Made by a program: the position numbers and the translations under genes. Positions 3,620 through 22,934 of a DNA stretch of 24,980 nt are shown piece after piece. The number at the start of each line of letters is the position of its first letter. Within the stretch, counting starts at the first letter, position 1. The stretch covers positions 1 through 24,980 of the forward strand of contig JASLMH010000067.1 in NCBI GenBank assembly GCA_030746635.1. The letters run 5' to 3'. This DNA comes from Alphaproteobacteria bacterium (GTDB taxonomy: Bacteria > Pseudomonadota > Alphaproteobacteria > GCA-2731375). The notes below the pieces were generated by a model. The model worked only from the letters and a program-made list of their open reading frames with translations, was not told where the DNA came from and did not search any database.

Positions 3620-3715
3620 AATAATTTCGGGGACAGGATATTTAATTACGGCGATGGCTCAGAGTGGATGGTCTCGGTGATCGGCGTAATTAAGTATCCT
3701 GTCCCCGAAATTATC
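3620..3715. repeat. 96-bp hairpin element. 31-bp inverted-repeat arms (2 mismatches) flank a 34-nt loop. The element is AT-rich relative to the genome and looks MITE/REP-like.
   Basis: Arm 1 (3620-3650) is AATAATTTCGGGGACAGGATATTTAATTACG. Arm 2 (3685-3715) is CGTAATTAAGTATCCTGTCCCCGAAATTATC. It lies between the flotillin stop (3611) and the ABC ATPase start (3733). Confidence 0.6.
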
Positions 3716-3732: not shown

Positions 3733-4848
3733 ATGGCCGATCTCGACGTCGTATTGGAGCATGTCGACAAGACCTTCGCCGGCGAAACCCGGGCGGTGAT
3801 CGATTTCACCGCCGAGTTCGAGCGTGGCGAATTCGTCGCCATGCTGGGACCGTCGGGCTGCGGCAAGACCACCACGCTGCGGATGATCGGCGGCCTGGAG
3901 GAGGTCACGGCCGGCCGCATCTATATCGCCGGCCAGGATGTCACCGACCTGCCGCCCTCGCACCGCGATACCTCGATGATGTTCCAGAGCTTCGCCCTGT
4001 TTCCTCACCGCACGGTGTTCCAGAACGTCGAATTCAGCCTGAAGATGCAGGGCCTGGATCGCGACGCGCGCCATCGCCGGGTCTGGGAAATGGTCGAGAT
4101 GGTCGGCCTGTCGGAACTGGCCAGCCGCCGCCCCTCGGACCTCTCGGGCGGTCAGCAACAGCGCGTCGCCCTGGCCCGGGCCCTGATCAGCCGGCCGACG
4201 GTGCTGCTCCTCGACGAACCGCTGGGCTCCCTGGACTACAACCTGCGTCAGACCATGATGGTGGAGTTGAAGAAGATCCAGCAGGAGACCGGCATCACCT
4301 TCATCATGGTCACCCATTCCCAGCAGGAGGCCATGTCCATGGCCGACAAGGTCATCGTGATGAGCGACGCGATGATCCAGCAGATCGGCACCTCGCGCGA
4401 AATCCACGAGAATCCCCGCAACCGCTTCGTCGCCGACTTCATCGGCAACAACAACCTGTTCCGCGGCACCATCCGGTCGCGCAGCGGCTCGGTGGTGTTC
4501 GTCGAATCCGATACCCAGCTCTATTATGTGAAAATCCCGGAACATATCCGCCAGGTCAGACCCGGTAGCGAGGCGTATTTTTCCGTGCGCGCGGATCTGA
4601 TGCACACCGGCGAGCAGCCGAACATGGCCAACAAGGTGATGGGCAGCTACATCGCCACCGAGTTCATGGGCACCCTGGAGACCGACGTTTTCGAGATCGA
4701 GCCCGGACATTTCGTGCATGTCGAGCAGCACCGGCACCTCTCGGACCGGGTCTACCAGGTGGGCGAGAGAGAAACCGTCTGCTGGGCCGCCGACAGCGGC
4801 GTGCTGCTGGAGGCGACCCGCCGGCCCGAGGACCTGGAGGTGGCCTGA
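3733..4848 (+). CDS. ABC transporter ATP-binding protein, PotA/PotG type (polyamine/opine-family importer ATPase), with a C-terminal TOBE-like domain.
   Basis: Walker A GPSGCGKTT, Q-loop, ABC signature LSGGQQQRVALARAL, Walker B LLLDEPLGSLD, H-loop VTHSQ. Confidence 0.9.
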   Translation: MADLDVVLEHVDKTFAGETRAVIDFTAEFERGEFVAMLGPSGCGKTTTLRMIGGLEEVTAGRIYIAGQDVTDLPPSHRDTSMMFQSFALFPHRTVFQNVEFSLKMQGLDRDARHRRVWEMVEMVGLSELASRRPSDLSGGQQQRVALARALISRPTVLLLDEPLGSLDYNLRQTMMVELKKIQQETGITFIMVTHSQQEAMSMADKVIVMSDAMIQQIGTSREIHENPRNRFVADFIGNNNLFRGTIRSRSGSVVFVESDTQLYYVKIPEHIRQVRPGSEAYFSVRADLMHTGEQPNMANKVMGSYIATEFMGTLETDVFEIEPGHFVHVEQHRHLSDRVYQVGERETVCWAADSGVLLEATRRPEDLEVA

Positions 4849-4860
4849 CGGCGGCAGCAA

Positions 4861-6141
4861 ATGGATCGTAGCGCGGATATCGTGATCATCGGCGCCGGTA
4901 TCGCCGGCGCCGCCAGTGCCTATTACCTGGCCAAGGGCGGCGCCAAGGTGGTGGTCTGCGAAAAGGGCGAGGTCGCCGGCGAGCAATCCAGCCGCAATTG
5001 GGGCTTCGTCCGCCAACAGGGCCGCGACCCGGCGGAAATCCCCCTGATGATGGCGTGCAACAGGATCTGGCGCGAGCTGGAGCGGGAGTTGAACGCCGAT
5101 CTGGAATGGCTGGCCAACGGCAACGTCGTCACCTTCGCCGACGAGGCGGAACGGGCCGCCTGGGAAGGCTGGCGCGACACCGCCAGGGACTTCGGCCTGC
5201 ATGCCGAATTGCTGGACCGGAGCGGACTGGATCGGCTCATCCCCGGTCATGCTTTCGACTGCCTGGGCGGCATCCACACCGAAAGCGACGGCCAGGCGGA
5301 ACCGACCAAGGTGACGGCCGCCTTTCGCCGCGCCGCCGAGGGCCGGGGGGCGGAATTCCTCACCCACTGCGCCGCCTACGAAGTCGAAACCGAGGCCGGC
5401 GCAGTGGCCGGCGTGCTGACCGAGCGGGGCGGCATCCGGGCCCCGGTGGTGGTCTGCGCCGCCGGCGCCTGGTCGGGCCGGCTGTTGCGCACCCTGGGCC
5501 TGAAACTGCCGCAGATCTGGCTGAAGGGATCGGTGGCACGCACCACCGCGGCGCCGATCATCTCCCACACCGCGACCTGGACAGGGGTCGCCTTCCGCCA
5601 GCGCCGCGACGGCACCATGAACCTCGCCACCCGCTCCACCGACCACGACCTGACCATCGACAGCCTGCTCAATCTGCCGGCCTTCACGGGCGGCTATCTA
5701 CGGAACCGCCGGGGCGTCCACTTGCACCTGAACCGGCTGTTCCTGGATCTGTTCGCCGGCCGCTTTTCGAAGGCGGCGCTGCGCCGCGAGCTGACCCGTC
5801 ACCGCATTCTGGATCCGGAACCGAACCACCGCATGCTGGCCCAGACCCTGACCGAACTGCGCCGCATCCTGCCGCCGGCCGCCGAGGTGGAGATCGACCG
5901 CAGCTGGGCCGGCTATGTGGATCTAACGCCGGACATGCTGCCGACCATAGACCGCCTGGAGCAGCCGGCCGGCCTGGTGCTGGCCACCGGTTTCAGCGGC
6001 CACGGCTTCGGCATGGGCCCGATCGTCGGCAAGCTGGTCTCGGAGCTGATCCTGGACGGCGAGCCGTCCCTGGATCTTTCGGCCTTCCGCTTCTCACGCT
6101 TCAACGACGGCAGCAAACTGACGCCCCATAGCGTGATCTGA
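4861..6141 (+). CDS. FAD-dependent oxidoreductase of the DAO/DadA family (amine or amino-acid oxidase/dehydrogenase type).
   Basis: N-terminal dinucleotide-binding motif DIVIIGAGIAGAASAYYLA. C-terminal GFSGHGFGMGP motif. 12 nt downstream of the ATPase gene. Confidence 0.85.
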   Translation: MDRSADIVIIGAGIAGAASAYYLAKGGAKVVVCEKGEVAGEQSSRNWGFVRQQGRDPAEIPLMMACNRIWRELERELNADLEWLANGNVVTFADEAERAAWEGWRDTARDFGLHAELLDRSGLDRLIPGHAFDCLGGIHTESDGQAEPTKVTAAFRRAAEGRGAEFLTHCAAYEVETEAGAVAGVLTERGGIRAPVVVCAAGAWSGRLLRTLGLKLPQIWLKGSVARTTAAPIISHTATWTGVAFRQRRDGTMNLATRSTDHDLTIDSLLNLPAFTGGYLRNRRGVHLHLNRLFLDLFAGRFSKAALRRELTRHRILDPEPNHRMLAQTLTELRRILPPAAEVEIDRSWAGYVDLTPDMLPTIDRLEQPAGLVLATGFSGHGFGMGPIVGKLVSELILDGEPSLDLSAFRFSRFNDGSKLTPHSVI

Positions 6142-6156
6142 CCGGGAAGAACCGAC

Positions 6157-6978
6157 ATGGCAGACCTGAACACCGTCCTGATCACCGGCGCGGCGGGCGG
6201 TATCGGTGGGCGTCTGCGCAAACTGCTCAAGGGGGCCTATCCGCGCCTGTTGCTGAGTGACCGCGAGAGGCCCGCCGATCTGGCGGATGACGAAGAATTC
6301 ATCGCCGCCGAGCTATCGGATATGACCCAGGTCGAGGCGCTGCTGCGGGGCGTCGACGGCGTCATACATCTGGGCGGCCGCGCCTTCGAGGACGAATGGG
6401 CGGTGATCCACCAGGCCAACATCGTCGGCTGCCACAATCTGTTCGAGGCGGCGCGCCTGAACGGCACGGCAAGGGTGGTCTTCGCCTCCTCGAACCACGC
6501 GATCGGCTTCTATCCCCGTCACCGCCGGATCGGCGTCGACCACAAGGTCCGCCCCGACAGCCGCTATGGCGTCTCGAAGGCCTTTGGCGAGGCCCTGGGC
6601 GCCTTCTATGCCGAGAAATACGGCCTCGGCGTGCTGGCCATCCGCATTGGCAACGTCGACGACCATCCGGTCGACCTGCGCCGCCTGTCGATCTGGATCA
6701 GCCCGCGCGATCTGGTGCAACTGATCCGCATCGGCCTGGAACATCCCGATCTGCGCTACGAGGTGGTCTGGGGTGTTTCCGACAACGCCCGCGGCTGGTG
6801 GGACAACGAACCGGCCTATCGCCTGGGCTATCGCCCGGCCGACCGGGCCGAGGACCATCGCGAACGCGCCCTGGCCGCCGAGGCCGAGCGGCAACCGGAC
6901 CCGGTGGGCGACCATTTCCAGGGCGGCGATGCCTGCAGCCTCGAATTCGCCGGGCCGCCGCCCGGCGACGGCGACTGA
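6157..6978 (+). CDS. udh: Uronate dehydrogenase-like NAD-dependent epimerase/dehydratase (short-chain dehydrogenase fold).
   Basis: The motifs TGAAGGIG, VIHLGG, RVVFASSNHAIGFYP, RPDSRYGVSKAFGEALG (YxxxK), VVWGVSDNARGWWDN and FQGG match those of characterised Udh enzymes, as I recall them. 15 nt after the preceding gene. Confidence 0.75.
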   Translation: MADLNTVLITGAAGGIGGRLRKLLKGAYPRLLLSDRERPADLADDEEFIAAELSDMTQVEALLRGVDGVIHLGGRAFEDEWAVIHQANIVGCHNLFEAARLNGTARVVFASSNHAIGFYPRHRRIGVDHKVRPDSRYGVSKAFGEALGAFYAEKYGLGVLAIRIGNVDDHPVDLRRLSIWISPRDLVQLIRIGLEHPDLRYEVVWGVSDNARGWWDNEPAYRLGYRPADRAEDHRERALAAEAERQPDPVGDHFQGGDACSLEFAGPPPGDGD

Positions 6979-7018
6979 TCCCACGAATCAACGGGCCTAT
7001 CTCGCGCCATCCACCCTT

Positions 7019-7121
7019 CGAGACGCGCCTACGGCGCTCCTCAGGGTGAGGACGAGCAAGGATTTTCGGACCCCTCTCATACTGAGGAGGGCGCGCAACG
7101 CCCGTCTCGAAGCATGTTTTT
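7019..7121 (+). terminator. Putative intrinsic terminator. A long imperfect stem-loop followed by a TTTTT tract, between the convergent udh and permease genes.
   Basis: CGAGACGCGCC…TCCTCAG pairs with CTGAGGAGGGCGCGC…CCCGTCTCG, followed by GCATGTTTTTGG at about 7113-7123. Confidence 0.3.
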
Positions 7122-7156: not shown

Positions 7157-7984
7157 CTACCGCGAGCGGCGGTAGAGGACTGTGTAGATGGCCAGGAACA
7201 GGCCGATCATCGCCAGGGAAAACACCGTCGAGGCGGTGCCCAGCGCGAACAGGGTCGGGCGGATGCGCTGGGTCATCGAGGCGTTGATGTCCAAGGGCAG
7301 GGTGTTCTCGGCCCCGGCCAGCAGGGTGGTACGGGCGAACTCGTCGTAGGACAGGGTGAAGCCGAACAGCCCGGCGGCGACGATGCCCGGGGTGATCAGG
7401 GGCAGGGTGATCTCCTTGAACACCGTCCATTCATCGGCACCCATATCCCGGGCGGCCTCCTCCAGGCTGCTGTCGAAGCGGTTGAACACCGCCATCATCA
7501 CCAGGAAGCCGAACGGCAAGGTCCAGACCACGTGCACGCCGAGGGCCGACGACCACCAGGCGGCCGGGATACCCATTTGCCGCATCAGGGTGGCCAGACC
7601 CAGGCTGAGCAGGATGCCGGGCACCATCAGGCCGGCCATCACCGTGTAGAACAGCAGGCCCGAGCCGTAGAATTTCTTGCGGAAGGCCATCGCCAGCATG
7701 GTCGAGAACAGGGCGGTGATGACCATGACGATCAGCGCCAGCATCAACGACCGCATCATCGCCCCTTGCAGATCGCCCACCGTCGACGGTTCGATCAACT
7801 TGCCCCACCAGTACAACGAGGTGCCGCGCATGGGGAACGAGGTGCCACCCCGCCGGCCCTGAAACGACAGGATGAACATGGCGATCATCGGGCCGTAAAT
7901 GAACACCACGAAGATCATGTAGTAGACGCTGAAACCGGTCTTCACCCAGGCCTTGCGGCGGCGTTCCGGGGTCCAGCGGGCCAT
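7157..7984 (-). CDS. ABC transporter permease, PotC/PotI type.
   Basis: Multi-TM protein with a binding-protein-dependent transport inner-membrane signature. Starts 4 nt after the upstream permease stop. Confidence 0.85.
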   Translation of the reverse strand: MARWTPERRRKAWVKTGFSVYYMIFVVFIYGPMIAMFILSFQGRRGGTSFPMRGTSLYWWGKLIEPSTVGDLQGAMMRSLMLALIVMVITALFSTMLAMAFRKKFYGSGLLFYTVMAGLMVPGILLSLGLATLMRQMGIPAAWWSSALGVHVVWTLPFGFLVMMAVFNRFDSSLEEAARDMGADEWTVFKEITLPLITPGIVAAGLFGFTLSYDEFARTTLLAGAENTLPLDINASMTQRIRPTLFALGTASTVFSLAMIGLFLAIYTVLYRRSR

Positions 7985-7987
7985 CCC

Positions 7988-8968
7988 TCAAAGCTCCTTG
8001 CGGATGTCGACGATGCGCAGGATGACGACGACGCCGATCATCATCGACAGCATCAGCATCAAGGCGTTCACCGCCGCGAAGGGATAGTTGGCGATGGCGT
8101 AGTAGTTCAGGATCACCGTGCCGGTGGTCGAGGTCTTGCCGCCATAGACCACCACGGCGGTGGCGAATTCGCCCATCAGTATGACGAAGATGAAGATCAT
8201 GCCGATGGCCACGCCGGGCAGCGACAACGGGCCGATAATCTCGCGAAAGATCTGGAACGGCGTCGCCCCCATGTCGCGGGCCGCCTCCAGGATCGCCGGG
8301 TCGATCTTGGACAACGAAAAAAAGATCGGCCCGACGCACAGCACCACGTAGATCTGCACCAGCGCCATGGTATAGCCGAATTCGGAATAGAGCAGGAAGC
8401 TCACCGGCTTGTCGACTATGTCCAGGTTGATCAGCAGGCTGTTCAACAGGCCCCGCCGGCCCAGCATCGGCAGCCAGGCCACGGCGCGGATCAGATACGA
8501 GGTCCAGAACGGCACCATGCAGACCAGGAACAGCGCCATCTGCCACTTGAACGACTGCACCTGCATGGCCAGGAAATAGGCGATCGGGTAACCGACGATC
8601 AGGCACAACACCATGACCACGGCGGTGAAATAGAAAGTCGAGCCAAGGGTGCGGATGAACACGCTGAGGGTCAGGAAGTTGCGGTGTTCCTGATCGAAGA
8701 AGCCCTCGTTGTAGAAATAGCCAGCGTAATATTGCAGCGTCAGGTCAGGGACGAGCCCCCCCTTGGCCGAGGTCCAGAAACTGAAGACGATGATGCTGAT
8801 CAGCGGCAGTACCAGGAACACCAGCAGCCAAAGCGTCGCCGGCGCCACCAGCCAGCCCACCGGGAAGCCCACCTCGCGCCTGGTCTTGCGGGCCTCCGCC
8901 ACCTGCGACGGCCCGACCGGCTGGCCGCCGATCAATCCGCTGTGCTGGGCCTGGGCGAAATCCTGCAT
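7988..8968 (-). CDS. ABC transporter permease, PotB/PotH type.
   Basis: Six predicted TM helices. Lies between the binding-protein and PotC-like genes. The start could instead be an internal GTG, since the SD at the ATG is weak. Confidence 0.8.
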   Translation of the reverse strand: MQDFAQAQHSGLIGGQPVGPSQVAEARKTRREVGFPVGWLVAPATLWLLVFLVLPLISIIVFSFWTSAKGGLVPDLTLQYYAGYFYNEGFFDQEHRNFLTLSVFIRTLGSTFYFTAVVMVLCLIVGYPIAYFLAMQVQSFKWQMALFLVCMVPFWTSYLIRAVAWLPMLGRRGLLNSLLINLDIVDKPVSFLLYSEFGYTMALVQIYVVLCVGPIFFSLSKIDPAILEAARDMGATPFQIFREIIGPLSLPGVAIGMIFIFVILMGEFATAVVVYGGKTSTTGTVILNYYAIANYPFAAVNALMLMLSMMIGVVVILRIVDIRKEL

Positions 8969-9066: not shown

Positions 9067-10353
9067 CTAGGCGCTGAGGAATTCGGTCCAGCGCTTCACC
9101 AGGTAATCGTTCTCGTCCATCAACGAGTTCCAGACGGCGATATTGGCGAACCGGTTCCAGTACGATCCGCCATCACGAACCTCGCCCTTCTCGACGATGA
9201 TGGTGCCGAACGGGTCGGGCAGTTCCTTGGCCGCCGGCTTGCCCTCGTACCAGAAGTCCCACTCCTCGGGCTCCAGGTGTTTCTTGACGTTTTCGGGCAC
9301 CGACATGTAGTAGCCCTGGCGGGCAACAAAGGCGCCGGGCCAGCCGCTGAGCCACCAGTTGATGTACTCATAGCACTGATCCAGCTTCTTGCCGGTGACC
9401 TTGGCGGAAATCGCGCAGCCGCCGTGCCAACCGCGCATGCCTTCCTTCAGGTAGGCGTAGACGCAGGGCACGCCCTCGGCCTTGATGGCCGTGACCGCCG
9501 GCGACCACATGCTTTCCAGCACCACCTCGCCGCTGACCATCAGGTTGACCGACTGGCCGAAGGTCTCCCAGAAGGCGCGGAAATGGCCTTCCTGCTTCTT
9601 CTTGATTAGGAAGTCGATCAGGAAATCGATCTCCGGCTTGGTCATGTTGCCCTTGTCCTTGAACTTGAACAGTCCCAGGGCCTCGATCGCCAGGGAAGCG
9701 TCCATGACGCCGATCTGCGGCACGTTCAACAGGGCCACCTTGCCCTTGAAGTCCGGGCTGAACAATTCGCCCCAGCTTTCGATCTTGCGGCCGGTGTCCT
9801 TGGGGTTGTAGCCCAGGGAATCGGCGTTGTGCCAACCCGGCAACATAGAGATGTAGCGCGAGGGACCCTTGACCCGATTGCCGTCCTCGTCCAGCCACAG
9901 CTGCCGGAATGGGGCATCGCCTTGACCCTGGCTCGAATCCGGGGTCAGACGGCCGGTCTTGCTTAGATTGGTGACCTTGTCCCACTCCTTGATCCGCTTG
10001 GTGTCGATCGGCTGCCAGACCTTGGACGGGATGAACACATCCATGTCGTTGTAATAGCCCTCGGCGATCTCGTACTGATCGTTCTGGTTCAGCATCTTGC
10101 CGAACATGGCGCCATAGCCCAGCGCCTGGCCCCGCACCGGGAAGCCCAGGTCCTTCGAGGCCCTGCCCTGGATCTCGTTGATGATGCTGACGCCCAGGCC
10201 GATGGTGCGGATCGGATCGGCGGCCTGAACGATATTCGGGAAACCGGCGACGCTGCCCGCCGCCACCGCGCCGGCGGCGGTCCCCATGAATTGCCGGCGG
10301 CTTACGCCCCCGTTCGCCACACCTATATGTTTGCTGCCATTCTTCGCGGTCAT
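9067..10353 (-). CDS. Periplasmic substrate-binding protein of a PotD/PotF-family ABC transporter, with a Tat/Sec signal peptide.
   Basis: Real start is MTAKNGSK…SRRQFMGTAAGAVAAGSVAGFPNIVQA (signal peptide). Strong RBS AAAGGGAGG 7 nt upstream of the ATG at 10351-10353. The 1225-aa track ORF is an upstream run-on and was rejected. Confidence 0.85.
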   Translation of the reverse strand: MTAKNGSKHIGVANGGVSRRQFMGTAAGAVAAGSVAGFPNIVQAADPIRTIGLGVSIINEIQGRASKDLGFPVRGQALGYGAMFGKMLNQNDQYEIAEGYYNDMDVFIPSKVWQPIDTKRIKEWDKVTNLSKTGRLTPDSSQGQGDAPFRQLWLDEDGNRVKGPSRYISMLPGWHNADSLGYNPKDTGRKIESWGELFSPDFKGKVALLNVPQIGVMDASLAIEALGLFKFKDKGNMTKPEIDFLIDFLIKKKQEGHFRAFWETFGQSVNLMVSGEVVLESMWSPAVTAIKAEGVPCVYAYLKEGMRGWHGGCAISAKVTGKKLDQCYEYINWWLSGWPGAFVARQGYYMSVPENVKKHLEPEEWDFWYEGKPAAKELPDPFGTIIVEKGEVRDGGSYWNRFANIAVWNSLMDENDYLVKRWTEFLSA

Positions 10354-13203: not shown

Positions 13204-13767
13204 TTATTGCTCCTCCGACCAGTCGCCGCGAACGAAGGCGACGGTGCTGGCATAGCCCTCCCGGTGCAGGCGCTCGACCGTGCCGGCCAGCTTGTCCGGG
13301 CCGTGGGCGGGGATGCCCAGGCCGTTGATGATCCGGTTGTTCATGTTGAACAGGGCGCAGACGGCGGCGGCGTGGTAGAGGGCGATATCGTCCCAGCCGG
13401 CGGCGAACACCGCATCGGCGTCTGCCTGGCTCATCCGTTCCGGGGTGTCGTTGAGCTTGCGGACGTATTTCAGGATCGCCTTCAGCCGATCGGGCAGCGC
13501 CGCCCCATCGATATCGTGCAACAGGGGTTCCAGCACGCCGGGCGCCATGCCGAAGGCCTCGGCCACCGCCGCGTGCTCGCCGTAGCAGAATTCGCAGGCG
13601 TTCAGGCCGGAGACAAAGGCGCCGATCAGCTCCCGCTCGGCCACCGAAAGCGGTGACGGTCCGCGCAACAGGGCCTGGTGATAGGCGGCGAAGGGCAGAC
13701 CGAGTTCCGGATCCAGCTTCAGAACCGCCTTCAGGTCCGCCCGCGGTTGGCTTTTCAGAAAACTCAT
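13204..13767 (-). CDS. Carboxymuconolactone-decarboxylase/AhpD-like peroxidase-related protein (CxxC).
   Basis: Starts MSFLKSQPRADLK with AAGGAG 5 nt upstream. Has the CEFCYGEH motif typical of AhpD-like proteins. The N-terminal extension in the track ORF was rejected. Confidence 0.75.
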   Translation of the reverse strand: MSFLKSQPRADLKAVLKLDPELGLPFAAYHQALLRGPSPLSVAERELIGAFVSGLNACEFCYGEHAAVAEAFGMAPGVLEPLLHDIDGAALPDRLKAILKYVRKLNDTPERMSQADADAVFAAGWDDIALYHAAAVCALFNMNNRIINGLGIPAHGPDKLAGTVERLHREGYASTVAFVRGDWSEEQ

Positions 13768-13777
13768 TGTGGCTCCT

Positions 13778-14512
13778 TTACCTTGACCGATCGGGGGCGG
13801 CGAGAAATCGCAGCAGCCAGGCGGCCATTTCGTCCTCGTGGGTCGGTTGCGCCAGGCTATCCAGGGCATTGTCGACGATAGCCCGGCCGAATTGGTCGCG
13901 CCGCATGGCGTAGAGGTCGGCGGCGAACGCCTTGGTCATTTCCGGATGGCCCTGCAAGGCGACGATGTTGTCGCCGAGCTGGAACAGGCCATAGGGGCAG
14001 AAATCGCTACCGGCCAACAACTCGGCGCCGTCCGGCAGCCGCGTCACCTGATCCTGGTGCGATGCCAGCAAGGCGATTTCGTCCAACGCCGGCGTCATCC
14101 AGTCGCGCCGTCGGCCGACCTGGTAGCTATGGACACCGATACCCCAGCCCCGCGACGAACGTTCGACGGCGCCGCCGAAGGCCTGGGCGACGAGCTGGTG
14201 ACCGAAGCAGATGCCGACGACGGGCCGCGCCTCGGCCGCCGCCCGCGCGAAGGCGGCCAAATCGGCGATCCAGGGATCGTCGTCGAAGGCGCTGTAACGA
14301 CTGCCGGTGATCAACCAGCCGTCGCAGGCCGAGACCGACGCGGGCAACTCGCCCAGGTAGCTGCGGTAGACCCGGAAGGCCGGCTGTTCGTCGCCCCGGC
14401 CGAGGAAGCGCCGGCAGGCATCGGCGAAGCTGCCGTGGCGGGCGGCCAGTTGCTCGGCCACCGCCCCCGCCTCCAGGATACCGATGGTGATCGGCGACGG
14501 AGGAGGCGCCAT
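13778..14512 (-). CDS. Class I glutamine amidotransferase-like protein.
   Basis: Nucleophile elbow GICFGHQL and catalytic LQGHPE. Begins MAPPPSPITIGILEAG. The upstream part of the 436-aa track ORF overlaps the next gene and was rejected. Confidence 0.75.
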   Translation of the reverse strand: MAPPPSPITIGILEAGAVAEQLAARHGSFADACRRFLGRGDEQPAFRVYRSYLGELPASVSACDGWLITGSRYSAFDDDPWIADLAAFARAAAEARPVVGICFGHQLVAQAFGGAVERSSRGWGIGVHSYQVGRRRDWMTPALDEIALLASHQDQVTRLPDGAELLAGSDFCPYGLFQLGDNIVALQGHPEMTKAFAADLYAMRRDQFGRAIVDNALDSLAQPTHEDEMAAWLLRFLAAPDRSR

Positions 14513-14538
14513 CGAAGAGTCCGATTCGCCGTAGGCGA

Positions 14539-15012
14539 TCAGGCCCGGCGGGCCGGGCGCATCACCTTCAACAGCCAGAAGATGACGCAGAAGATGCCGG
14601 TCAGCACCACCAGCGCCACCACCGCCGCCAGCCGTTTGCCGAAGGCCTCGCCCAGGGTATAGCCGTCCTGCAGCAGATAGACGCAGAGGATCTGCACCGA
14701 TTGCAGGGCGGCGCCGGCACTGAGCAGGATGGCGGCGAAGGTCGAGCCGCGCAGCGAGGTTAGGACCATGGATTCGACGCTGCGCTGCTGCACGATATGG
14801 GTGCGATAGGCGCGCCAATGATAGCCGCAGAAGCCGACGATGCCGACGATCAGCACCACCCAGAAGATGGCGTTGTGGTGGCTGAGGCCGTTCAGCACCA
14901 GGGTGAAGAGGTCCTCGAACGGCTGGTAGAAATACAGGAAGATCAGGACGACGATGTAGATGATGAAGCCGACCAGGGTCCAGAACCACTGCCAACCGCT
15001 CATATCCCGCAT
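14539..15012 (-). CDS. Small integral membrane protein (about 4 TM), function unknown.
   Basis: Hydrophobic helices (WFWTLVGFIIYIVVLIFLYF, IFWVVLIVGIVGFCGY, FAAILLSAGAAL, LAAVVALVVLTGIFCVIFWLL). The start is uncertain: ATG at 15012 or 15003, or the longer Arg-rich extension to 15093. Confidence 0.5.
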   Translation of the reverse strand: MRDMSGWQWFWTLVGFIIYIVVLIFLYFYQPFEDLFTLVLNGLSHHNAIFWVVLIVGIVGFCGYHWRAYRTHIVQQRSVESMVLTSLRGSTFAAILLSAGAALQSVQILCVYLLQDGYTLGEAFGKRLAAVVALVVLTGIFCVIFWLLKVMRPARRA

Positions 15013-15120
15013 CCCCTGTTGTCGATACCGCGCCGCTGCCGGCCGGCGATCCGATTTTCTTGTACCCGATCGGCGACGGGCAAGGCAATGCATCGGCCCA
15101 TGGCGGTCATCCCTTCCCCC

Positions 15121-16539
15121 TCACGATGCCAGGGGCGGCCGTCGACGGTGCCATTCGGTGGCCCCCTCGTAGGCCGACGCCACCCGCAGCAGGGTCGGCT
15201 CCTCGAACCAGCCGGCCAGCAATTGCAGGCCCACCGGCAGGCCGTCGGCGGTGAAGCCGCAAGGCACCGAGATCGCCGGTTGCCCGGTGAAACAGGCCAG
15301 CCGGGTCAACTGTCCCAGGGCGCGCCAGCCCTCCACCTTGCGATCGCCGACCCACAGGGCGCCGGTTTCGATCGGCACCGCCGGCAGCGCCGTCGTCGGC
15401 AGCGCCAGCACCGGCGTCTCCGCCAGTACCGCCGCCATCTCCCGGTTGATCCGCATCCGGCTGTCGCGGGCCCGCAGGTACTGGTTGGCGGTGAGGTCCC
15501 GGCCCAGCAACAGCCGCTCGGCGACGTCGGGCGACAATTCATCGCCGTGCCGTGTCAGGTGCCCTTCATGGGTGGCGTAAGCCTCGGCCTGGGCCATGAC
15601 GTTCCAGGCGTCGATGGCCTCGCGATTGAAGGGCAGGACCACCTCCTCGACGGCGGCGCCGAGATCGCTCAACTGGCCGATCGCCGCCTGCACCGCCACC
15701 GCCACCTCCGCGTGCAGGCGATCGAAATAGAAATCCCTGGGCACGCCGATGCGCAAACCGTCCAGGGGTTGCGCCAACGCCGCCGTGTAGTCACGCGCCA
15801 CCGCGCCCGTGGTGGTCGGATCGTCGTCATCGGCGCCGGCGATGGCGCCCAGCAGCAGGGCGGCATCGCGCACCGTGCGGGTCAGCGGGCCGCCATGGTC
15901 GAGGCTGGCGCAGAGCGGATAGATACCGGCCCGGCTGGCCAGGCCATAGGTCTGCTTCAGGCCGACCACGCCGCACAGGGCGGCCGGAATGCGGATCGAG
16001 CCGCCGGTATCGCTGCCCAGCGCGCCGGCGGCCAGCGAGGCCGCCACGGCGCAGCCCGAACCACTGGAGGAGCCGCCGCAGACCCGGTCCCGGCTCCAGG
16101 GGTTTCGCGCCGTGCCGACATGGGGGTTGATGCCGGTGGGGCCGAAGGCGAATTCATGCAGGTTCAGCAGGCCCAGGATGATGGCGCCGGCCCGGCGCAA
16201 CCGGGCGACGGAGGTGGCGTCGCTGTCGGCCACCCCTTCGTCCAGGATCTTCGAGCCGCAGGTCCGCCGCATGCCGGCGACCTGGAACAGATCCTTCACC
16301 GCCAGGGGAATGCCGTGCAACGGGCCGCGATAGGCGCCGGCGGCGATCTCCCGTTCCGCCTGGCTGGCGGCATCCATCGCCTGTTCGGGGTAGAGCGAGA
16401 CGTAGGCGCGCAAGCCACCGTCCAGCGCCTCGATCCGATCCAGTTGCGCCCGCACCAATTCGACCGGCGACAATTCACCGGCGGCGATCCGTTCGCCCAT
16501 GGCGGCGATATCCAGAAGCTCGGGTGCCGCCCCGTTCAT
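15121..16539 (-). CDS. Amidase-signature family amidase.
   Basis: GGSSSGSGCAVAASLAAGALGSDTGGSIRIPAALCG plus the catalytic Lys region GIPLAVKDLF. GGAGG 7 nt upstream. The ATG overlaps the upstream gene's stop (ATGA). Confidence 0.9.
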   Translation of the reverse strand: MNGAAPELLDIAAMGERIAAGELSPVELVRAQLDRIEALDGGLRAYVSLYPEQAMDAASQAEREIAAGAYRGPLHGIPLAVKDLFQVAGMRRTCGSKILDEGVADSDATSVARLRRAGAIILGLLNLHEFAFGPTGINPHVGTARNPWSRDRVCGGSSSGSGCAVAASLAAGALGSDTGGSIRIPAALCGVVGLKQTYGLASRAGIYPLCASLDHGGPLTRTVRDAALLLGAIAGADDDDPTTTGAVARDYTAALAQPLDGLRIGVPRDFYFDRLHAEVAVAVQAAIGQLSDLGAAVEEVVLPFNREAIDAWNVMAQAEAYATHEGHLTRHGDELSPDVAERLLLGRDLTANQYLRARDSRMRINREMAAVLAETPVLALPTTALPAVPIETGALWVGDRKVEGWRALGQLTRLACFTGQPAISVPCGFTADGLPVGLQLLAGWFEEPTLLRVASAYEGATEWHRRRPPLAS

Positions 16540-17606
16540 GCCGCCGCCTCCGGGATCGCCACGATCAGCAGGACGCCGTAGATTACCAGGTACAGGGCAT
16601 CCTTGATGGTTGGGATGACCTGCCGCTCGCCGCTGCCCGGCAGCAACAGGATGATGACCTCCAGCACCAAGGCGATGATGGCCAGGAAGAAGAACGGCCA
16701 AACGCTGCTCCACCAGGACAGGGTTTCCGGCAGTACCACCCCCTGCACCGCCCGCCAGATCAGCAACAGGATCGGCAGGGCGATGAAATAGGCATGCACG
16801 ACGAGGAAACGGTACCGCGTCAGCTTGCGGTCCAGCAGCCAGAAGACCACGAAGAACAGCGCCACGTACAGCACGTCCCAGAACATCGAAGCGTATTTCT
16901 CGCCGCCGCCGTCGCGTTGCAGGTTCAGGAAGCCGAGGAACAGCAGGAACACCATGGCATCGCCCAACAGCCACTCCCGCAAATTTTCCGTCGCGCCCTT
17001 GACGTTCCAGGTGCGCGAGGCCTTGTCGAACAACAACACCAGCGCCACCGCCAGGCTGGCCGGATACAGAAGCCGCAGCACCAGGGCGTACTGTTCGGCC
17101 CGGTCCAGATAGATCCAGTTCAGCAACAGGAAGGCGGCCAGCAGCAGCAACAGGCCCAACAGCCGCACTCCGGACGGCGTCTGCACGGCCGGTTGCGACG
17201 CCGTCGGTTCGGCCGTCGGCGCGGCCACCGGCTCGACCGCGACGGTCCCGGCGCGTGACGATTCCGCGATCAGATAGATCAGGAAGGCCACCAGCCCCAG
17301 GCCGGCGACGATCAGCATGACGACGAAAAACAGGATGGCGCGATCGTCGGCCCGCCAATCCACCGCCTGGGCCAACAGGCCGTCGGCCGAGAACTGCCAG
17401 ACCGCCAGCACCACCACCGCCAGCAGCAGGATCAGGGCGAGCAGGAATTCATACCAGCGCGGGCCGTGCAGAGCCTGCACACCAGCCGCCGCCGCGCCCA
17501 GGGGCCGGCGCAGATAGCGGCTGACCAGGAAGACCAGGAACGCCAGCACGCCGACCACGGCGATGGCGATCATTACCTCCAAAAAGACGACCGATCTGCT
17601 ATCCAC
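16536..17606 (-). CDS. Polytopic (about 10 TM) membrane protein of unknown function, translationally coupled to the amidase gene.
   Basis: Ten hydrophobic segments with an Ala/Pro-rich loop after TM3. Alternative start ATG at 17573 (MIAIAVVG) with GGAGG just upstream. The track start at 17606 is GTG. Confidence 0.6.
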   Translation of the reverse strand: MDSRSVVFLEVMIAIAVVGVLAFLVFLVSRYLRRPLGAAAAGVQALHGPRWYEFLLALILLLAVVVLAVWQFSADGLLAQAVDWRADDRAILFFVVMLIVAGLGLVAFLIYLIAESSRAGTVAVEPVAAPTAEPTASQPAVQTPSGVRLLGLLLLLAAFLLLNWIYLDRAEQYALVLRLLYPASLAVALVLLFDKASRTWNVKGATENLREWLLGDAMVFLLFLGFLNLQRDGGGEKYASMFWDVLYVALFFVVFWLLDRKLTRYRFLVVHAYFIALPILLLIWRAVQGVVLPETLSWWSSVWPFFFLAIIALVLEVIILLLPGSGERQVIPTIKDALYLVIYGVLLIVAIPEAAA

Positions 17607-17722
17607 AACTCATCCCATGCGGCCCGGCGGCGGGCCTACGGTGCCACCGAAAGCCGTTGATTTCAAAGACAACTTGCCATGCCGGAAGTCTGGAGCGTGG
17701 TCCGCTTCCGTCCTTGCCTTGC

Positions 17723-18409
17723 CTAGCGGTTGCGCAGCGGCAGCTTGTCCAGATAGGCCAGGACGTTCTCCAGCGGTTCCACGTCGCCGAACTTGGCGTC
17801 GATATCGAACAGGTTCCACTCGACGACGCCGGCCACCCGGTCGCCGACCGCCTCGCGCACGACGATCGGGCGGAAACCCTCGGCGATGGCATCCTCCACC
17901 GTGTGGCGGACACAACCGGCCATGGTGACGCCGGTGACGATCACCGTGTCGACGCCGGCGGCGCGCAGGAAGCCGGCCAGATAGGTGCCGTGAAAGGCGC
18001 TGGCCCGCTTCTTGATGATCACCTGCTCGTCCGGGCGCGGGGCGATGCGGTCGTCGATCTGCACCGCCTCGGTGCCGACCTGTAGGACCTCGGCCGGGAT
18101 TTTCAGATGCCACAGGCCCATGTCGGTGTTCGGGCCCTGGGTTACCTCGTAGGCGGTCGAGGTATAGACGATGGGGATGCTCTTCTCCCGCGACGCCGCC
18201 AGCAGGTCCTGCACCGCCGGGATGATCACGTCCATATCATCGCAGGTGAAGGCGTGGCCCGGCCGGGTCCAGGCATTCGCCAGATCGATATTGATCAGCG
18301 CCGGCCGCTCGCCATAGCCGATGCGGCGCTGGAAGCCGCGCGATTGGTAGAGTTCGCTGTCGGCGGAAAAGATCTTCTCCAACGCTTCCTTCAATTCGCT
18401 GCTGGTCAT
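17723..18409 (-). CDS. Isochorismatase-family cysteine hydrolase (N-carbamoylsarcosine amidase / maleamate amidohydrolase-like).
   Basis: D-K-C catalytic arrangement: INIDLANAW, KKRASAF, VTGVTMAGCVRHTVEDA. RBS GAGGTGG 6 nt upstream. Confidence 0.85.
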   Translation of the reverse strand: MTSSELKEALEKIFSADSELYQSRGFQRRIGYGERPALINIDLANAWTRPGHAFTCDDMDVIIPAVQDLLAASREKSIPIVYTSTAYEVTQGPNTDMGLWHLKIPAEVLQVGTEAVQIDDRIAPRPDEQVIIKKRASAFHGTYLAGFLRAAGVDTVIVTGVTMAGCVRHTVEDAIAEGFRPIVVREAVGDRVAGVVEWNLFDIDAKFGDVEPLENVLAYLDKLPLRNR

Positions 18410-18483
18410 CGCCCCACCTCGCCGTTCGGATGGCCAAGGCTAGCGCGGAATCCTCGCCCTGGCCATGGTTCGCGAGCCCCGCC

Positions 18484-19416
18484 CTAAGGTCGGGCCTGCC
18501 AGCCGTAGTCCAGGTACTGCCAGGCGATGCGGTCGTGGTCGAGAGTGATGGTGTTGAAGCCTTCCACGGTGCCGTGGTTGGGGCCGGTCCACCAGCGGCC
18601 GCAGATGGCGCCGCCCATGATGAAGGTGGTGCCCCGCCAGCGCAGCAGCTCCTTCACGTGCAGGTGCCCTTGCAGCACCAGCACGAGATTGTGATCGGCG
18701 AACAGCTCCAGCACCGGCAGATTGTTGACCACCACCCGGTTGGGCGGCGGCGTGACGGTGCCGCCCTCGACGGCGCCGTAGTAGGCGGTCAGCAGGGGTA
18801 TGTGGAGGACCACGACGATCGGTTTGGCGCGCGGGAGGCCCGACAATTCGCGGTGGATCCACTCCCGCTGCCGGCGGGAAATCCAGCCGTAATACTGGTA
18901 GTCGTCGCCGGAGACGCGGACCGAATCCAGCAGCATGAAGTGATAGCCGAGGGCATCGAACGACCAAAAGGTGCGCGACCGGCCGAGCCGCCGCCGGTAT
19001 TCGGCCTTGGGATCGGCGATTGGCGGAGAACCGTCGTCGGGCCGGGCCGCCACCAGATCGTGGTTGCCGATCACCGCATGATGCTCGCCCCTGATGGCGT
19101 CGTGCATGGCCATGTAGAGATCCCAGCGCGGCGCCGCCTCGGCCATCGTGGCGTTGAAGCCGCCATGGATCAGGTCGCCGCCACCGAACACCAGATCCGG
19201 CTGTTGGGCATTGATCGCCGCCGCCGCCTGCATCACCGCCTGCGGCGCCCCCCGCCCCAGGTGCGCATGCACATCGGAATAGAACGCCAGCCGCAACCGA
19301 CCCTGTTCCGAGCCCCGCACCGTCCATTCAGTGCGTGCCAGGGCCGGGGCGGCGAGCAGGCCGCCACCGGCGGCCAGGGAATACAACAGGCGGCGCCGGG
19401 AAAGGGCTTGTGACAT
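18484..19416 (-). CDS. Calcineurin-like metallophosphoesterase with a twin-arginine (Tat) signal peptide.
   Basis: Start MSQALSRRRLLYSLAAGGGLLAAPALA, with GGGAG about 8 nt upstream. Motifs DVHAH, GGDLIHGG, GNHD, VLQGHLH. Confidence 0.8.
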   Translation of the reverse strand: MSQALSRRRLLYSLAAGGGLLAAPALARTEWTVRGSEQGRLRLAFYSDVHAHLGRGAPQAVMQAAAAINAQQPDLVFGGGDLIHGGFNATMAEAAPRWDLYMAMHDAIRGEHHAVIGNHDLVAARPDDGSPPIADPKAEYRRRLGRSRTFWSFDALGYHFMLLDSVRVSGDDYQYYGWISRRQREWIHRELSGLPRAKPIVVVLHIPLLTAYYGAVEGGTVTPPPNRVVVNNLPVLELFADHNLVLVLQGHLHVKELLRWRGTTFIMGGAICGRWWTGPNHGTVEGFNTITLDHDRIAWQYLDYGWQARP

Positions 19417-19433
19417 CTCTCTCGCTCCCACGC

Positions 19434-20696
19434 CTACGCCGCCGACGCGGCGCGGCGGCGGGTCCAGCGGCCGCAGATCCATCCCGCCAGCAACAAGACA
19501 ACGACGGTGGCGAGGAAATACCCGGCAAGGGTCGATCGGCTATGGCGGGTGATCAGGTTCTCGCTGACCCGGCTGTCAAACGCCATCCCGACCTGGAGGT
19601 TGGCTTCGACCTGTTCTTTTGACGCGGCGGGCCAGGGGTAGCCGGACGATCGCAAGATATTGCCGAAGTATTTCTCGACGATTTGGTTCTCCCGGTAGGC
19701 CCTGGTGTAGCGCATACGGCGCACGTCCGCGTCCTTGGCCTCGCGCGCCAGTTCAAGATTGCTGTCGCGGCTGAAGAGATGCACCCGCGCCTCGTGCAGG
19801 AAGGGATCGGTGCCGGGGCCATGAATCAACAGAAACTCCCGGTATTTCTCGATTTGCCTGTATTGATCAACGATCCGCCCGACTTCGCTTGCCCGCCGGC
19901 GGTCCAGTCGACTGAGTTCTTCAACGGTAAATCGGGAACGGAACACCCCAATATCCGGGTCACGGTGCAAATGCCCGTATTCGACCATGATGCCGGACCC
20001 CGCGGGCACGATGTCGAGCAGCGGAAAACGCTGGGTGTACCAGGCGATACGGTCCGGCGTATTGAGATAGCAAAGGCCCAGATAGGCGACGCCCGCGGCG
20101 GCACCGAGACACAGCCGACGCAGCCCCCGGCCGTCCGGCCAGCCGACAATCATCTTCGGCCGGATGCCCGCGGCCAGGGCCAGTTGGACCAAGGCGATCG
20201 CCAGCAGATTCAGCCCAATGTCGCGGGCATCGAAGTACCTCTTGGGTGTCAGCCATTGAATGGTCTCATCCAGCATGCCGACCATGGCGCCAACAATGGC
20301 AGCCGCGACATAGATGCTGTAGTCGCGAATACGGCAGGCCAGGGCGCGGAAGATCAACACGCCGAGGGGCCCGTATTCCAGGAAATGGATGGCTTCCTCG
20401 GGACTGCCCGACCCCAGACCGAAGGTCAGATAGATGAAGGCCAAGGTGACGGCGAACAGCCATGCATAGCCGACGGTCGATGTCTGCGCCCGGGTCAATA
20501 GACGGGCCAGGATCGCCACCGCCAGCACCACCACCACGGCGATCACCGTGTAGGTGTAGGTCTCGCGCCCCCAGGCCGCGTTGATTTGTTCGGTGATGCC
20601 GCGCACGAAGGGAATGGTCAGGAAAATGATCCCCGCCCAGAGGGCGACCTGCACCCAGCAGACCCATTCGCGCTGTCGCGGTGGTTGGTCGAACAT
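19434..20696 (-). CDS. VanZ-like domain membrane protein with an additional about 200-aa extramembrane domain and a C-terminal TM anchor.
   Basis: VanZ signature region GMLDETIQWLTPKRYFDARDIGLNLLAIALV after 3-4 TM helices. Start MFDQPP at ATG 20696, with GGAGGGAGG immediately upstream. The stop lies 17 nt before the phosphoesterase start. Confidence 0.7.
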   Translation of the reverse strand: MFDQPPRQREWVCWVQVALWAGIIFLTIPFVRGITEQINAAWGRETYTYTVIAVVVVLAVAILARLLTRAQTSTVGYAWLFAVTLAFIYLTFGLGSGSPEEAIHFLEYGPLGVLIFRALACRIRDYSIYVAAAIVGAMVGMLDETIQWLTPKRYFDARDIGLNLLAIALVQLALAAGIRPKMIVGWPDGRGLRRLCLGAAAGVAYLGLCYLNTPDRIAWYTQRFPLLDIVPAGSGIMVEYGHLHRDPDIGVFRSRFTVEELSRLDRRRASEVGRIVDQYRQIEKYREFLLIHGPGTDPFLHEARVHLFSRDSNLELAREAKDADVRRMRYTRAYRENQIVEKYFGNILRSSGYPWPAASKEQVEANLQVGMAFDSRVSENLITRHSRSTLAGYFLATVVVLLLAGWICGRWTRRRAASAA

Positions 20697-20870
20697 CCTC
20701 CCTCCAACCTCGTTTTCCACCGGTGCGGAAGCGAATCCCTTGAACGCCAGAGTTTACCGCCGGCAACTCCAGCAGGGTAGCAGCCAGCCTGAAAATGCGC
20801 CTATCATCCGTGGCGAGACGGGCCATGCCCGTCGCACCCTGTTGCCTTCAACGAATTCAGCGGATCTCCC

Positions 20871-21464
20871 ATGCCCAGATCGACAGGCTTCCTCGCAGTA
20901 TCGTTGCTTCTGATGGCCCTATGGTCAGCGCCCGCCGGCGCGGCCGACGTCCACCAGCTCGCCCCGGCCGAACCGCAGCCCGACGCCAAGAGCCTGAAAC
21001 CGGGCCTTGCGGTCGAGTACGTCTACCGGGAGGCCAAGTCCCTGCACGATGCCGAGAGCTACCGCGGCTACAACCTGGAAAGCCGGGGCGAACCGTTGAA
21101 GGGGTTCGTCTATGGCGACACCAACCCGGGCGACGGGGCACTCACGTCGGGGGCCAGCGAACTGGTGATCGCCTACATCAAGGGCTACATGCGGTTCGAG
21201 GCAGGCCAGCACGAGCTGGAGTTCCAATCGAACGACGGGCTTCGCGTCATCCTCGGCGGCGTTCAGGTGTACGAGCACGACCTGCGCCACCCGTGCGTGA
21301 GCAACGGCGCGGTGACGGTGAAGGCACCGCAGGCCGGCTGGTATCCGGTCGAGGCGCTCTACTTCCAGCGTCTGGGCACCTCCTGCCTGGATCTCAGCAT
21401 CCGGCGGCCGGGCGGCGAATGGGATTGGACCGAGCCCGAGATCTACGCCCACCTGCCGGGCTGA
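20871..21464 (+). CDS. Secreted hypothetical protein (Sec signal peptide; possibly a beta-sandwich/PA14-like fold).
   Basis: Signal peptide MPRSTGFLAVSLLLMALWSAPAGAA. No strong SD. Divergent from the VanZ-like gene. Confidence 0.55.
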   Translation: MPRSTGFLAVSLLLMALWSAPAGAADVHQLAPAEPQPDAKSLKPGLAVEYVYREAKSLHDAESYRGYNLESRGEPLKGFVYGDTNPGDGALTSGASELVIAYIKGYMRFEAGQHELEFQSNDGLRVILGGVQVYEHDLRHPCVSNGAVTVKAPQAGWYPVEALYFQRLGTSCLDLSIRRPGGEWDWTEPEIYAHLPG

Positions 21465-21467
21465 GCC

Positions 21468-21565
21468 GGAACAAAGGGGCAGTTAAGGGGACACCATGTT
21501 TCCCTTGGCCGAGAAGCGGTCATGGCAGGGGAAGAATGGTGTCCCCTTAACTGCCCCTTTGTTCC
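21468..21565. repeat. 98-bp hairpin element. Perfect 30-bp inverted-repeat arms with a 38-nt loop. Either a MITE/REP-like element or an unusually long bidirectional terminator.
   Basis: 21468-21497 is GGAACAAAGGGGCAGTTAAGGGGACACCAT. 21536-21565 is its exact reverse complement. It lies between convergent genes ending at 21464 and 21588. Confidence 0.65.
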
Positions 21566-21587
21566 GCCGCGGGCCGTGTCAAGAAAC

Positions 21588-22229
21588 CTAGCTGTTGCGT
21601 TTGCGGACGTCGTCCAGGTAGCCCAGCACCTCGTCCAGGGTGACCACGTCGGCATAGCGGCGGTGGACGTCGGTCAGGTTGGCGACGTGCGGTCCCTCCT
21701 CGACGTCGCCGACGCAATCCTCGGGCACCGCCACGCGATAGCCGTAGGAAAAGGCGTCGATGATCGAGGCGCGGATGCAGCCCGACGTGTTGCAGCCGGC
21801 GATGATCACGGTGTCCACCCGCTCCTTGACGAAGAATTGCGTGATCGCCGTTTGGAAGAAGATCGACGGCCCGGTCTTGCAATAGACCACGTCGTAGTCG
21901 CGGTCGTAGATGCGCGGCTCCAGTTCGGTGCAGGGATGGCCGTGGTGGAATTCCTCCACCACCGGCGGGATTTTCCAATACGGCGCGTCCCGGGCCGAAC
22001 TGTAAGCGGTGTAGCAGGTGGCCACGGGTATGTTGCCGGCCCGGGCCAGTTCCAGCAGGCGGGCGGTATTTTCCACCGCCCGCTCCACCAGTGGCCGGCC
22101 GCCCAGCGGGAATTCGCTATCGGTGAAGCCGCGCTGGAAGTCGACCACGGCGATCGCCGGCCGTTCGCCGAAACCGATGCGATGGGCCTCGAAGCCGATT
22201 TGCTTGTAGATATCGCCAGCGTCGCTCAT
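21588..22229 (-). CDS. Isochorismatase-family cysteine hydrolase, paralog of 17723..18409.
   Basis: Shares RIGFGERPAIAVVDF, IPVATCYTAY, …VDTVIIAGCNTSGCIRASIIDA… and the C-terminal LDEVLGYLDDVRKRN with the other copy. Confidence 0.85.
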   Translation of the reverse strand: MSDAGDIYKQIGFEAHRIGFGERPAIAVVDFQRGFTDSEFPLGGRPLVERAVENTARLLELARAGNIPVATCYTAYSSARDAPYWKIPPVVEEFHHGHPCTELEPRIYDRDYDVVYCKTGPSIFFQTAITQFFVKERVDTVIIAGCNTSGCIRASIIDAFSYGYRVAVPEDCVGDVEEGPHVANLTDVHRRYADVVTLDEVLGYLDDVRKRNS

Positions 22230-22301: not shown

Positions 22302-22934
22302 CTACTTGGTGCCGTACAGCCGGTCGCCGGCATCGCCCAGGCCCGGCAGGATGTAGCCGATGTCGTTGAGTTGCCGGTCGATGGCGGCGGTCAGGATCGG
22401 CACGTCGGGATGGGCCGCGCCGAACGCTTCGATGCCCTCGGGCGCGGCGACCAGGGCGACGAACTTGATCCGTCGGGCGCCGGCCTCCTTCAGGCGGTGC
22501 ACGGCCGCGGCGGCCGAATTGCCCGTCGCCAGCATCGGATCGACGACGATCACCAGCCGCTCGCCGATATCCTCGGGCAGCTTCAGATAATATTCCACCG
22601 CCTCCAGGGTGTCGTGGTCGCGATACAGGCCGATATGGCCGACCCGGGCCGAGGGGATCAGGTCAAGCATCCCCTCCAACAGGCCGTTGCCGGCCCGCAG
22701 CACCGAGACCAGGCAGAGTTTCTTGCCGGCCAGGGCCGGCGCCCGCATGGTCTCCAATGGCGTGGCGATCTCCACCTCTTCGAGGTCGAGATCGCGGGTC
22801 GCCTCGAACGCCAGCAACAGGCTGATCTCGCGCAGCAACTGCCGGAACTCGGCGGTCGAGGTCTCGACCCGGCGCAACAGCGTCAATTTGTGCTGAATCA
22901 GAGGGTGGTCGGCCACCGTTGCCTTCGCCGCCAT
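22302..22934 (-). CDS. upp: Uracil phosphoribosyltransferase.
   Basis: [72 protein letters not shown]. Confidence 0.9.

Follow-up and report, generated by a model that had tools for sequence, protein, structure and literature searches.

The stretch of DNA analysed here (24,980 nt of contig JASLMH010000067.1, assembly GCA_030746635.1; hereafter the window) contains a pair of convergent genes separated by a long inverted repeat. On the plus strand lies a gene for a PA14-domain protein (20871–21464), and on the minus strand a gene for a NicF-like protein of the isochorismatase family (21588–22229), close homologues of which carry the JGI name 'maleamate amidohydrolase'. The upp gene (22302–22934, minus strand) is upstream of the isochorismatase-family gene. 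The 123-nt gap between the convergent genes (21465–21587) is filled by the repeat, which we call E1. Its perfect stem begins 2 nt past the PA14 stop codon and ends 21 nt from the isochorismatase stop codon, a position typical of a terminator. Alignments place the C-termini of both flanking proteins at the same position as those of their homologues, indicating that both coding ends are intact. Two other convergent gene pairs in the window are separated by gaps of 23 and 3 nt and have no hairpin, so an element of the E1 type is not required where genes converge.

The surrounding genes have several features of their own. Gene callers dispute start codons on otherwise identical contigs: the PA14 gene is called as 183 or 197 aa (window 20871 / 20913), and a VanZ-like gene (19434–20720) as 390, 420, or 428 aa. 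Genes for amide and N-heterocycle catabolism are abundant at window positions 13204–22229 and at positions 1–10000 of contig L114. They include three isochorismatase-family paralogues (one of them NicF-like), an amidase, hydantoinase A/B, an amidohydrolase, an OYE-type flavin reductase, and an ABC uptake system. This neighbourhood has the look of a catabolic island; two related contigs, L118 and L120, are syntenic with part of it.

E1 is a perfect inverted repeat with 31-bp arms (21467–21497 and 21536–21566) and a 38-nt spacer. A preliminary description of this DNA had reported convergent flanking genes, a perfect 30-bp inverted repeat with a 38-nt spacer, and arms that are AT-richer than their surroundings, and all three observations hold. 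The 30-bp arm, GGAACAAAGGGGCAGTTAAGGGGACACCAT, is found at 21468–21497 on the plus strand and at 21536–21565 on the minus strand with 0 mismatches, and the GC content is 55% in the arm, 57% in the whole element, and 65% in the window. The actual pairing extends to 31 bp, with C21467 and G21566 forming a further pair beyond the 30-bp arm; the left arm is then CGGAACAAAGGGGCAGTTAAGGGGACACCAT, and the right arm is its exact reverse complement. By parts, the arm reads C-GG-AACAAA-GGGGCAG-TTAA-GGGGACA-CCAT, and the 30-bp arm contains no internal palindrome except TTAA. The total length of E1 is 98–100 bp, and the 30-bp arms are bordered by a direct repeat of 3 bp (GCC), which overlaps the 31st base pair. 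The spacer (21498–21535) is partly self-complementary and pairs imperfectly, carrying the hairpin up to a small terminal loop. It is also asymmetric, so that the two strands differ within it. Outside the perfect arms, a weaker extended inverted repeat (21457–21576) with 51-nt arms that are 86% complementary overlaps the PA14 stop codon. Together, the perfect arms, the weaker extension, and the spacer pairing make the whole 120 nt nearly a single continuous hairpin.

Such a repeat far exceeds what the composition of the window would produce. When the window was simulated 60 times with a first-order Markov model, the longest perfect inverted repeat with closely spaced arms was 12.5 bp on average and 15 bp at most; the analytic expectation for a perfect repeat of at least 31 bp is ∼1 × 10^-11. 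Chance is thus excluded as the source of the E1 repeat. Predicted RNA folds are correspondingly stable, at −94.6 kcal/mol on the plus strand and −86.5 kcal/mol on the minus strand (z = −10.9 and −10.6), and no other intergenic region of the window is as structured as E1 (−0.68 and −0.63 kcal/mol per nt).

Examination of the arms highlights a terminator-like layout on both strands. A GC clamp, GGGGCAG (21476–21482), forms the base of the inner stem and pairs with CTGCCCC (21551–21557). Immediately outside the clamp are an A-tract, AACAAA (21470–21475), and a T-tract, TTTGTT (21558–21563), which lies directly 3′ of the clamp on the plus strand; read on the minus strand, the A-tract is itself a TTTGTT tail following the clamp. 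Thus, the outer 9 bp of the repeat flank the GGGGCAG/CTGCCCC clamp with an A-tract to its left and TTTGTTCC to its right, and both strands would yield a GC-clamped RNA hairpin (21476–21557) followed directly by UUUGUUCC. The perfect repetition of the 9 bp beyond the clamp is explained by this arrangement, because what one strand reads as an A-tract the other reads as a U-tract. We interpret the layout as that of a predicted bidirectional intrinsic terminator.

When the stem is taken as 21476–21557, the TTTGTTCC tails have T-scores of 3.19 on the plus strand and 3.21 on the minus strand, values that no more than 0.13% of the 15-nt windows of this DNA (65% GC) attain. In both directions the d'Aubenton-Carafa discriminant is above zero (+16.7 and +9.4), as computed by a Carafa-type formula with the modern energy parameters of ViennaRNA and for an element whose size is well outside the training range. 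It is strongly negative for the other two long hairpins of the window (E2 and the hairpin at 7016–7112, see below). A generic terminator scan of the window did not call E1. The usual intrinsic terminator has a stem of about 5–15 bp and a loop of 3–10 nt. E1 is not compact in this sense: its stem is 22–31 bp long, its interior measures 38 nt, and its hairpin spans 82–100 nt. Under the terminator reading, the hairpin consists of a 22-bp perfect lower stem and an imperfect upper part, 82 nt in all. The preliminary description was therefore right that the stem is far longer than that of a normal intrinsic terminator, but it overlooked the A-tract and T-tract around the GC clamp, which make E1 terminator-like in both directions. 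With 5 U in 6, the U-tract is short, and the minimum-free-energy fold pairs it with the A-tract. In sum, E1 resembles a bidirectional intrinsic terminator in lying directly after both stop codons, in its symmetric order of A-tract, GC-rich stem, and T-tract, and in its positive discriminant both ways; it differs in a stem two to three times longer, the 38-nt interior, the short U-tract, and a composition AT-richer than the genome.

The same locus is found in assemblies of several origins. Contigs encoding the proteins that flank E1 come from GCA_030744475.1 and GCA_030743425.1, two NCBI MAGs with the label Alphaproteobacteria, as well as from marine metagenomes of JGI, ENA assemblies including those of TARA, and Logan. 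Eighteen of the 20 loci fetched contain a complete E1, one of them (L017) with a single mismatch in one arm, and the other two are Logan contigs that end inside an arm. The presence of E1 in 18 contigs of NCBI, JGI, ENA/TARA, and Logan origin rules out an assembly artefact. We considered whether the breaks in the two Logan contigs (L010 and L019; window positions 21496 / 21537) signal a sequence repeated elsewhere, and rejected this, since a 31-bp inverted repeat collapses to one canonical node at k = 31 and forces a branch in the assembly graph. All 20 loci are 99.9–100% identical to the window; they represent one population and say nothing about selection.

Beyond this population, the gene arrangement is not retained. 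By upp, the nearest species-representative genome is MAG ANT-29, at 84% identity and with no synteny. Homologues of the PA14 protein reach at most 62% identity, and the three that we examined (P0003, P0005, and P0009) are all in unrelated gene contexts. Homologues of the isochorismatase-family protein at 82–88% identity, one of them in a MAG named as Minwuiales, are followed by different, co-directional downstream genes across short unstructured gaps with no hairpin. Judging from these comparisons, the junction of the PA14 and isochorismatase genes is lineage-specific.

Searches for further copies of E1 returned none. The window holds no second copy of the arm even with up to 3 mismatches allowed. 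A separate search of the 41 kb of contiguous genome formed by L114, the window, and L001, which amounts to ∼1% of the host genome, gave none either. Exact 20-mers of the arm have 0 matches in 185,579 species-representative genomes (GTDB) and 0 matches in the JGI metagenome collection; both sets are without E1's own locus, and both are therefore weak negatives. No copy of the arm was found in the plasmid collection. Seven 16-mer matches in viral contigs were attributed to chance: none has a hairpin, the similarity extends over at most 17 nt, and three of them are the same phage. At the protein level, six-frame peptides of E1 and of a second hairpin, E2, returned nothing from an index of 5.8 billion proteins, a search that likewise missed a control 35-aa ORF lying over E2 (contig L115) and so carries no information. 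Rfam gave nothing at gathering score for E1, and in E-value mode only generic miRNA-precursor models far below threshold.

Two other long hairpins occur in the window. E2 (3621–3714) is built of 35-nt arms (2 mismatches) around a 24-nt spacer; its GC content is 45%, and it lies in the 121-nt gap between the co-directional genes for an SPFH/Band_7 protein (795–3611) and an ABC ATPase (3733–4848). It has no U-tract. At the orthologous SPFH–ABC junction of L118 and L120, E2 is not present: the two genes are adjacent, with an unrelated gap of 60 nt, and no long hairpins were found in the 20 kb of either contig. We considered and rejected a relationship between E1 and E2, which have only the 7-mer GGGGACA in common, a match compatible with chance. 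A 35-aa ORF across E2 is called in one assembly. The adjacent SPFH/Band_7 gene (938 aa) contains seven in-frame 87-nt (29-aa) repeats in two blocks (1710–1970 and 2310–2657), which are 62–79% identical to the reference copy; its orthologue in L118 and L120 is of similar length (941 aa). The third long hairpin (7016–7112) is imperfect and GC-rich. It occupies the other wide convergent gap of the window, between an epimerase gene (ending at 6978, plus strand) and a permease gene (ending at 7157, minus strand), and is followed after 4 nt by a T5 run on the plus strand.

Repeats of this general kind are also found in another contig. L122, a TARA contig that encodes an isochorismatase homologue of 84% identity, has its own multicopy hairpins. 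One family, 75–93 nt long and of the sequence CTTGACCC[A/G]TCCC[G/A]CTCCCCCACCC..., has two copies within ∼3 kb (5429–5521 and 8305–8379), one of which lies between convergent genes; in addition, positions 9497–9646 hold an inverted array of 22-nt units (ATAGGGGTCAAGTCTTGTCTGC). Multicopy palindromic repeats are thus clearly present in the genome from which L122 derives.

The absence of E2 in relatives hints that such hairpins may be gained by insertion. AT-rich hairpins that are lineage-specific, unrelated in sequence, and variable among relatives are in keeping with how small palindromic repeat elements behave. A stem shaped by selection alone would be expected to hold mismatches, as the hairpin at 7016–7112 does; the flawless 31 bp of E1, AT-richer than the genome, make it look young. 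Three features, namely the perfect stem, a composition richer in AT than the genome, and the lack of E2 at the orthologous site in relatives, suggest with less certainty that E1 arrived recently as a small palindromic repeat (SPRITE-, REP-, or MITE-like) rather than by slow local evolution.

Hairpins that share the stem base of E1 are found elsewhere. Among metagenome contigs retrieved with the base CAAAGGGGCAG...CTGCCCCTTTG, all 15 of 15 loci are true long hairpins, and those with readable flanking ORFs are mostly just past gene 3′ ends, at least six of them between convergent ORFs. Their similarity to E1 reaches only 0–4 nt past the anchor, and we rejected them as members of an E1 family. 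This supports the view that the base CAAAGGGGCAG...CTGCCCCTTTG is a common 3′-end device rather than a family signature. The hairpin-anchored pattern search recovered an unrelated hairpin family made of GGGGCARA octamers. Its members (L125, L126, L129, L132, L133, L134, L137, and L138, from JGI contigs Ga0105091/92/104 and Ga0209593) are 85–130 nt long, and their arms consist of tandem 8-nt units (GGGGCAGA / GGGGCAAA / GGAACAAA / GGGAAAAG) opposite their complements. They follow directly on gene 3′ ends; of the eight, at least four lie between convergent ORFs. The loci have 57–60% GC, and we did not recognise them as any described repeat family. A separate hairpin at the end of a short contig of 32% GC (L136, 1178–1272; GGGACAAAGGGGCAGATAATGTACTGGTGAGAAAGC...) is perfect over ∼44 bp and was retrieved solely through an 11-nt anchor shared with the search pattern.

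Several described classes of element resemble E1 in part. The Caulobacter intergenic repeat (CIR; Chen and Shapiro 2003) is reportedly an intergenic palindrome of ∼110 nt associated with GANTC (CcrM) sites. E1 resembles it in length, intergenic position, and alphaproteobacterial host. We rejected CIR identity on the GANTC association, since neither E1 nor E2 contains such a site. A tRNA or tmRNA was likewise rejected by direct sequence check.

Further parallels are found among small repeats of other bacteria. SPRITE, a 30-copy pneumococcal family, is AT-rich with AAAA/TTTT termini, has an 18-bp stem and a U-rich tract, and is enriched between convergent genes; no target duplication is detectable for it, and its co-option as a terminator has been proposed (PMC3049150). 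By the definition given there, E1 is SPRITE-like in composition, termini, stem, and location: it is ∼100 nt long, AT-rich relative to its genome, bounded by an A-run and a T-run, built on an over-long stem with a U-rich tract, placed near CDS 3′ ends between convergent genes, and without a demonstrable target-site duplication. It differs in being alphaproteobacterial, unrelated in sequence, and known from one copy. REP-type elements are biased towards convergent gene pairs (PMC3184786; bioRxiv 10.64898/2026.03.23.713779), and REPs have been described as combined terminators and mRNA stabilisers that are linked to higher expression of convergent pairs (bioRxiv 10.64898/2026.03.23.713779). E1 shares with REP, BIME, and REPIN elements an extragenic palindrome at gene 3′ ends, where stabilisation of the upstream mRNA and attenuation of read-through would be expected. 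REP units, however, are imperfect GC-rich palindromes of ∼20–40 nt (typically ∼35 nt), a REPIN being two of them in inverted order; they occur in hundreds of copies and are linked to RAYT transposases, whereas the E1 arms lack an internal palindrome and are AT-richer than the genome (55% GC against 65%), and the 41 kb contain no RAYT gene or further copy; E1 is not a REP or REPIN unit by composition or by arm structure. E1 is an ordinary, familiar kind of feature and not a new system. We do not claim that it belongs to the MITE, REP, or SPRITE families.

Our preferred reading, held with somewhat more belief than doubt, is that E1 is a lineage-specific palindromic element that serves as a predicted bidirectional factor-independent terminator and 3′-end protective hairpin for two convergent units. 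A selfish MITE is a live rival, and the two readings overlap, because the origin of an element and its present function are separate questions. According to the rival, E1 belongs to a multicopy MITE or another small mobile palindromic repeat; it would persist between the convergent gene ends because an insertion there does little damage, and it would have no selected function at this site. We take this seriously and still place it on the unlikely side. The anatomy is suggestive: like bacterial MITEs such as Correia, RUP, and Chunjie (reviewed in PMC3184786), E1 combines long perfect terminal inverted repeats (30/31 bp) with a short non-coding, non-palindromic core and forms a long hairpin, and at ∼100 bp it falls under the limit of about 200–400 bp for such elements (<200 bp in these examples). 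It has no coding capacity and is AT-richer than its host, its perfect stem argues for a recent origin, and small repeats are known to gather between convergent genes (PMC3049150; PMC3184786). E2, an AT-rich hairpin of similar size missing from the orthologous junction in relatives, and the multicopy hairpin repeats of L122 point the same way. Beyond its structure, a MITE is marked by multiple copies, by a target-site duplication, and by a parent IS whose ends match its own. Searches for the arm of E1 in the window, the 41 kb, species representatives, metagenomes, viral contigs, and plasmids gave no second copy, a weak negative with ∼1% of the host genome covered. The GCC repeat could be read as a target-site duplication, but it is weak evidence because it overlaps the 31st base pair. 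No transposase, integrase, recombinase, or RAYT gene is among the called genes of the 41 kb, and E1 and E2 share just the one 7-mer. The A-tract/T-tract symmetry, moreover, is better explained by terminator function. The main reading of the preliminary description, a MITE or a REP/ERIC-like mobile element, finds no confirmation on either count in the sequence covered, and the arms have no REP-type internal palindrome. The RNA structure serving both convergent transcripts that it also raised is the best fit to the anatomy of E1.

Two further alternatives would give E1 a role as DNA or as a gene. That it acts at the DNA level, as an operator pair, an attC site, a recombinase target, or a cruciform-forming element, seems very unlikely to us. 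Perfect Watson–Crick symmetry would suit a dimeric DNA-binding protein or a cruciform, but E1 lies at the 3′ ends of both neighbours, where no promoter-like sites were found, and half-sites of 31 bp placed 38 nt apart are atypical of operators. GANTC methylation sites are absent from it, and the called genes of the 41 kb include neither an integrase nor a recombinase. Sites of the attC type carry the core sites RYYYAAC / GTTRRRY, pair imperfectly so that extrahelical bases remain, and sit in a cassette context with an integrase. The ends of E1, CCGGAAC / GTTCCGC, misfit these core sites, its pairing is perfect with no extrahelical bases, and its neighbours are convergent with no integrase called; we rejected attC identity on these grounds. 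We give still less credence to the idea that E1 encodes a 31-aa peptide or a small RNA. An AAGGGGA Shine–Dalgarno-like motif does lie 4 nt before an ATG in the left arm, which opens an ORF that the preliminary description counted as 36 codons and considered fortuitous. The ORF has 31 codons plus a stop (21496–21591, plus strand), and its dismissal as fortuitous is reasonable: the motif and start codon are buried in the 31-bp perfect stem, the peptide is hydrophilic and featureless, no homologues of it were found, and no gene caller called the ORF in any of the 20 contigs. Searched in full with HMMER against 1.84 billion representatives, the open frame that runs through E1 matched only four unrelated tandem-repeat proteins, and the Rfam matches were confined to the generic miRNA-precursor models noted above.

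The terminator and protective-hairpin reading of E1 can be set out as a mechanism. The units served would be the PA14 gene on the plus strand and the upp–isochorismatase genes on the minus strand. RNA polymerase arriving from either side would meet the same order of elements (AACAAA, GGGGCAG, an AU-richer stem, CUGCCCC, and UUUGUUCC). The GC-clamped hairpin would close just upstream of the U-rich stretch, and the transcript may then be released as at an intrinsic terminator. At the 3′ end of the RNA, the long stem that remains would block 3′-to-5′ exonucleases, as REP hairpins do. A ribosome terminating at the PA14 stop codon would have to melt the base of the E1 stem, because the stem begins 2 nt past that codon; by analogy with REPs near stop codons, this may damp PA14 expression. 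E1 itself was plausibly acquired as a small palindromic element. It is tempting to speculate further that an uncultured marine alphaproteobacterial lineage has its own families of AT-rich, ∼100-nt perfect-hairpin mobile elements, of which E1 and E2 would be the first members sampled. Such elements would spread by insertion just after stop codons, and E1 would bring with it a ready-made bidirectional terminator, which would make them a proteobacterial counterpart of pneumococcal SPRITE. We advance this conjecture tentatively and with more doubt than the MITE reading.

E1 raises no new biological question. It does bear on whether terminator-carrying mobile hairpins, so far represented by pneumococcal SPRITE, occur in marine Alphaproteobacteria too. 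If the terminator reading is right, E1 would be one more case of convergent units ended by a single symmetric hairpin, and possibly a case of small palindromic repeats recruited as terminators. For this uncultured marine alphaproteobacterium, with a GC-rich genome that otherwise has few canonical terminators, it would also aid 3′-end annotation.
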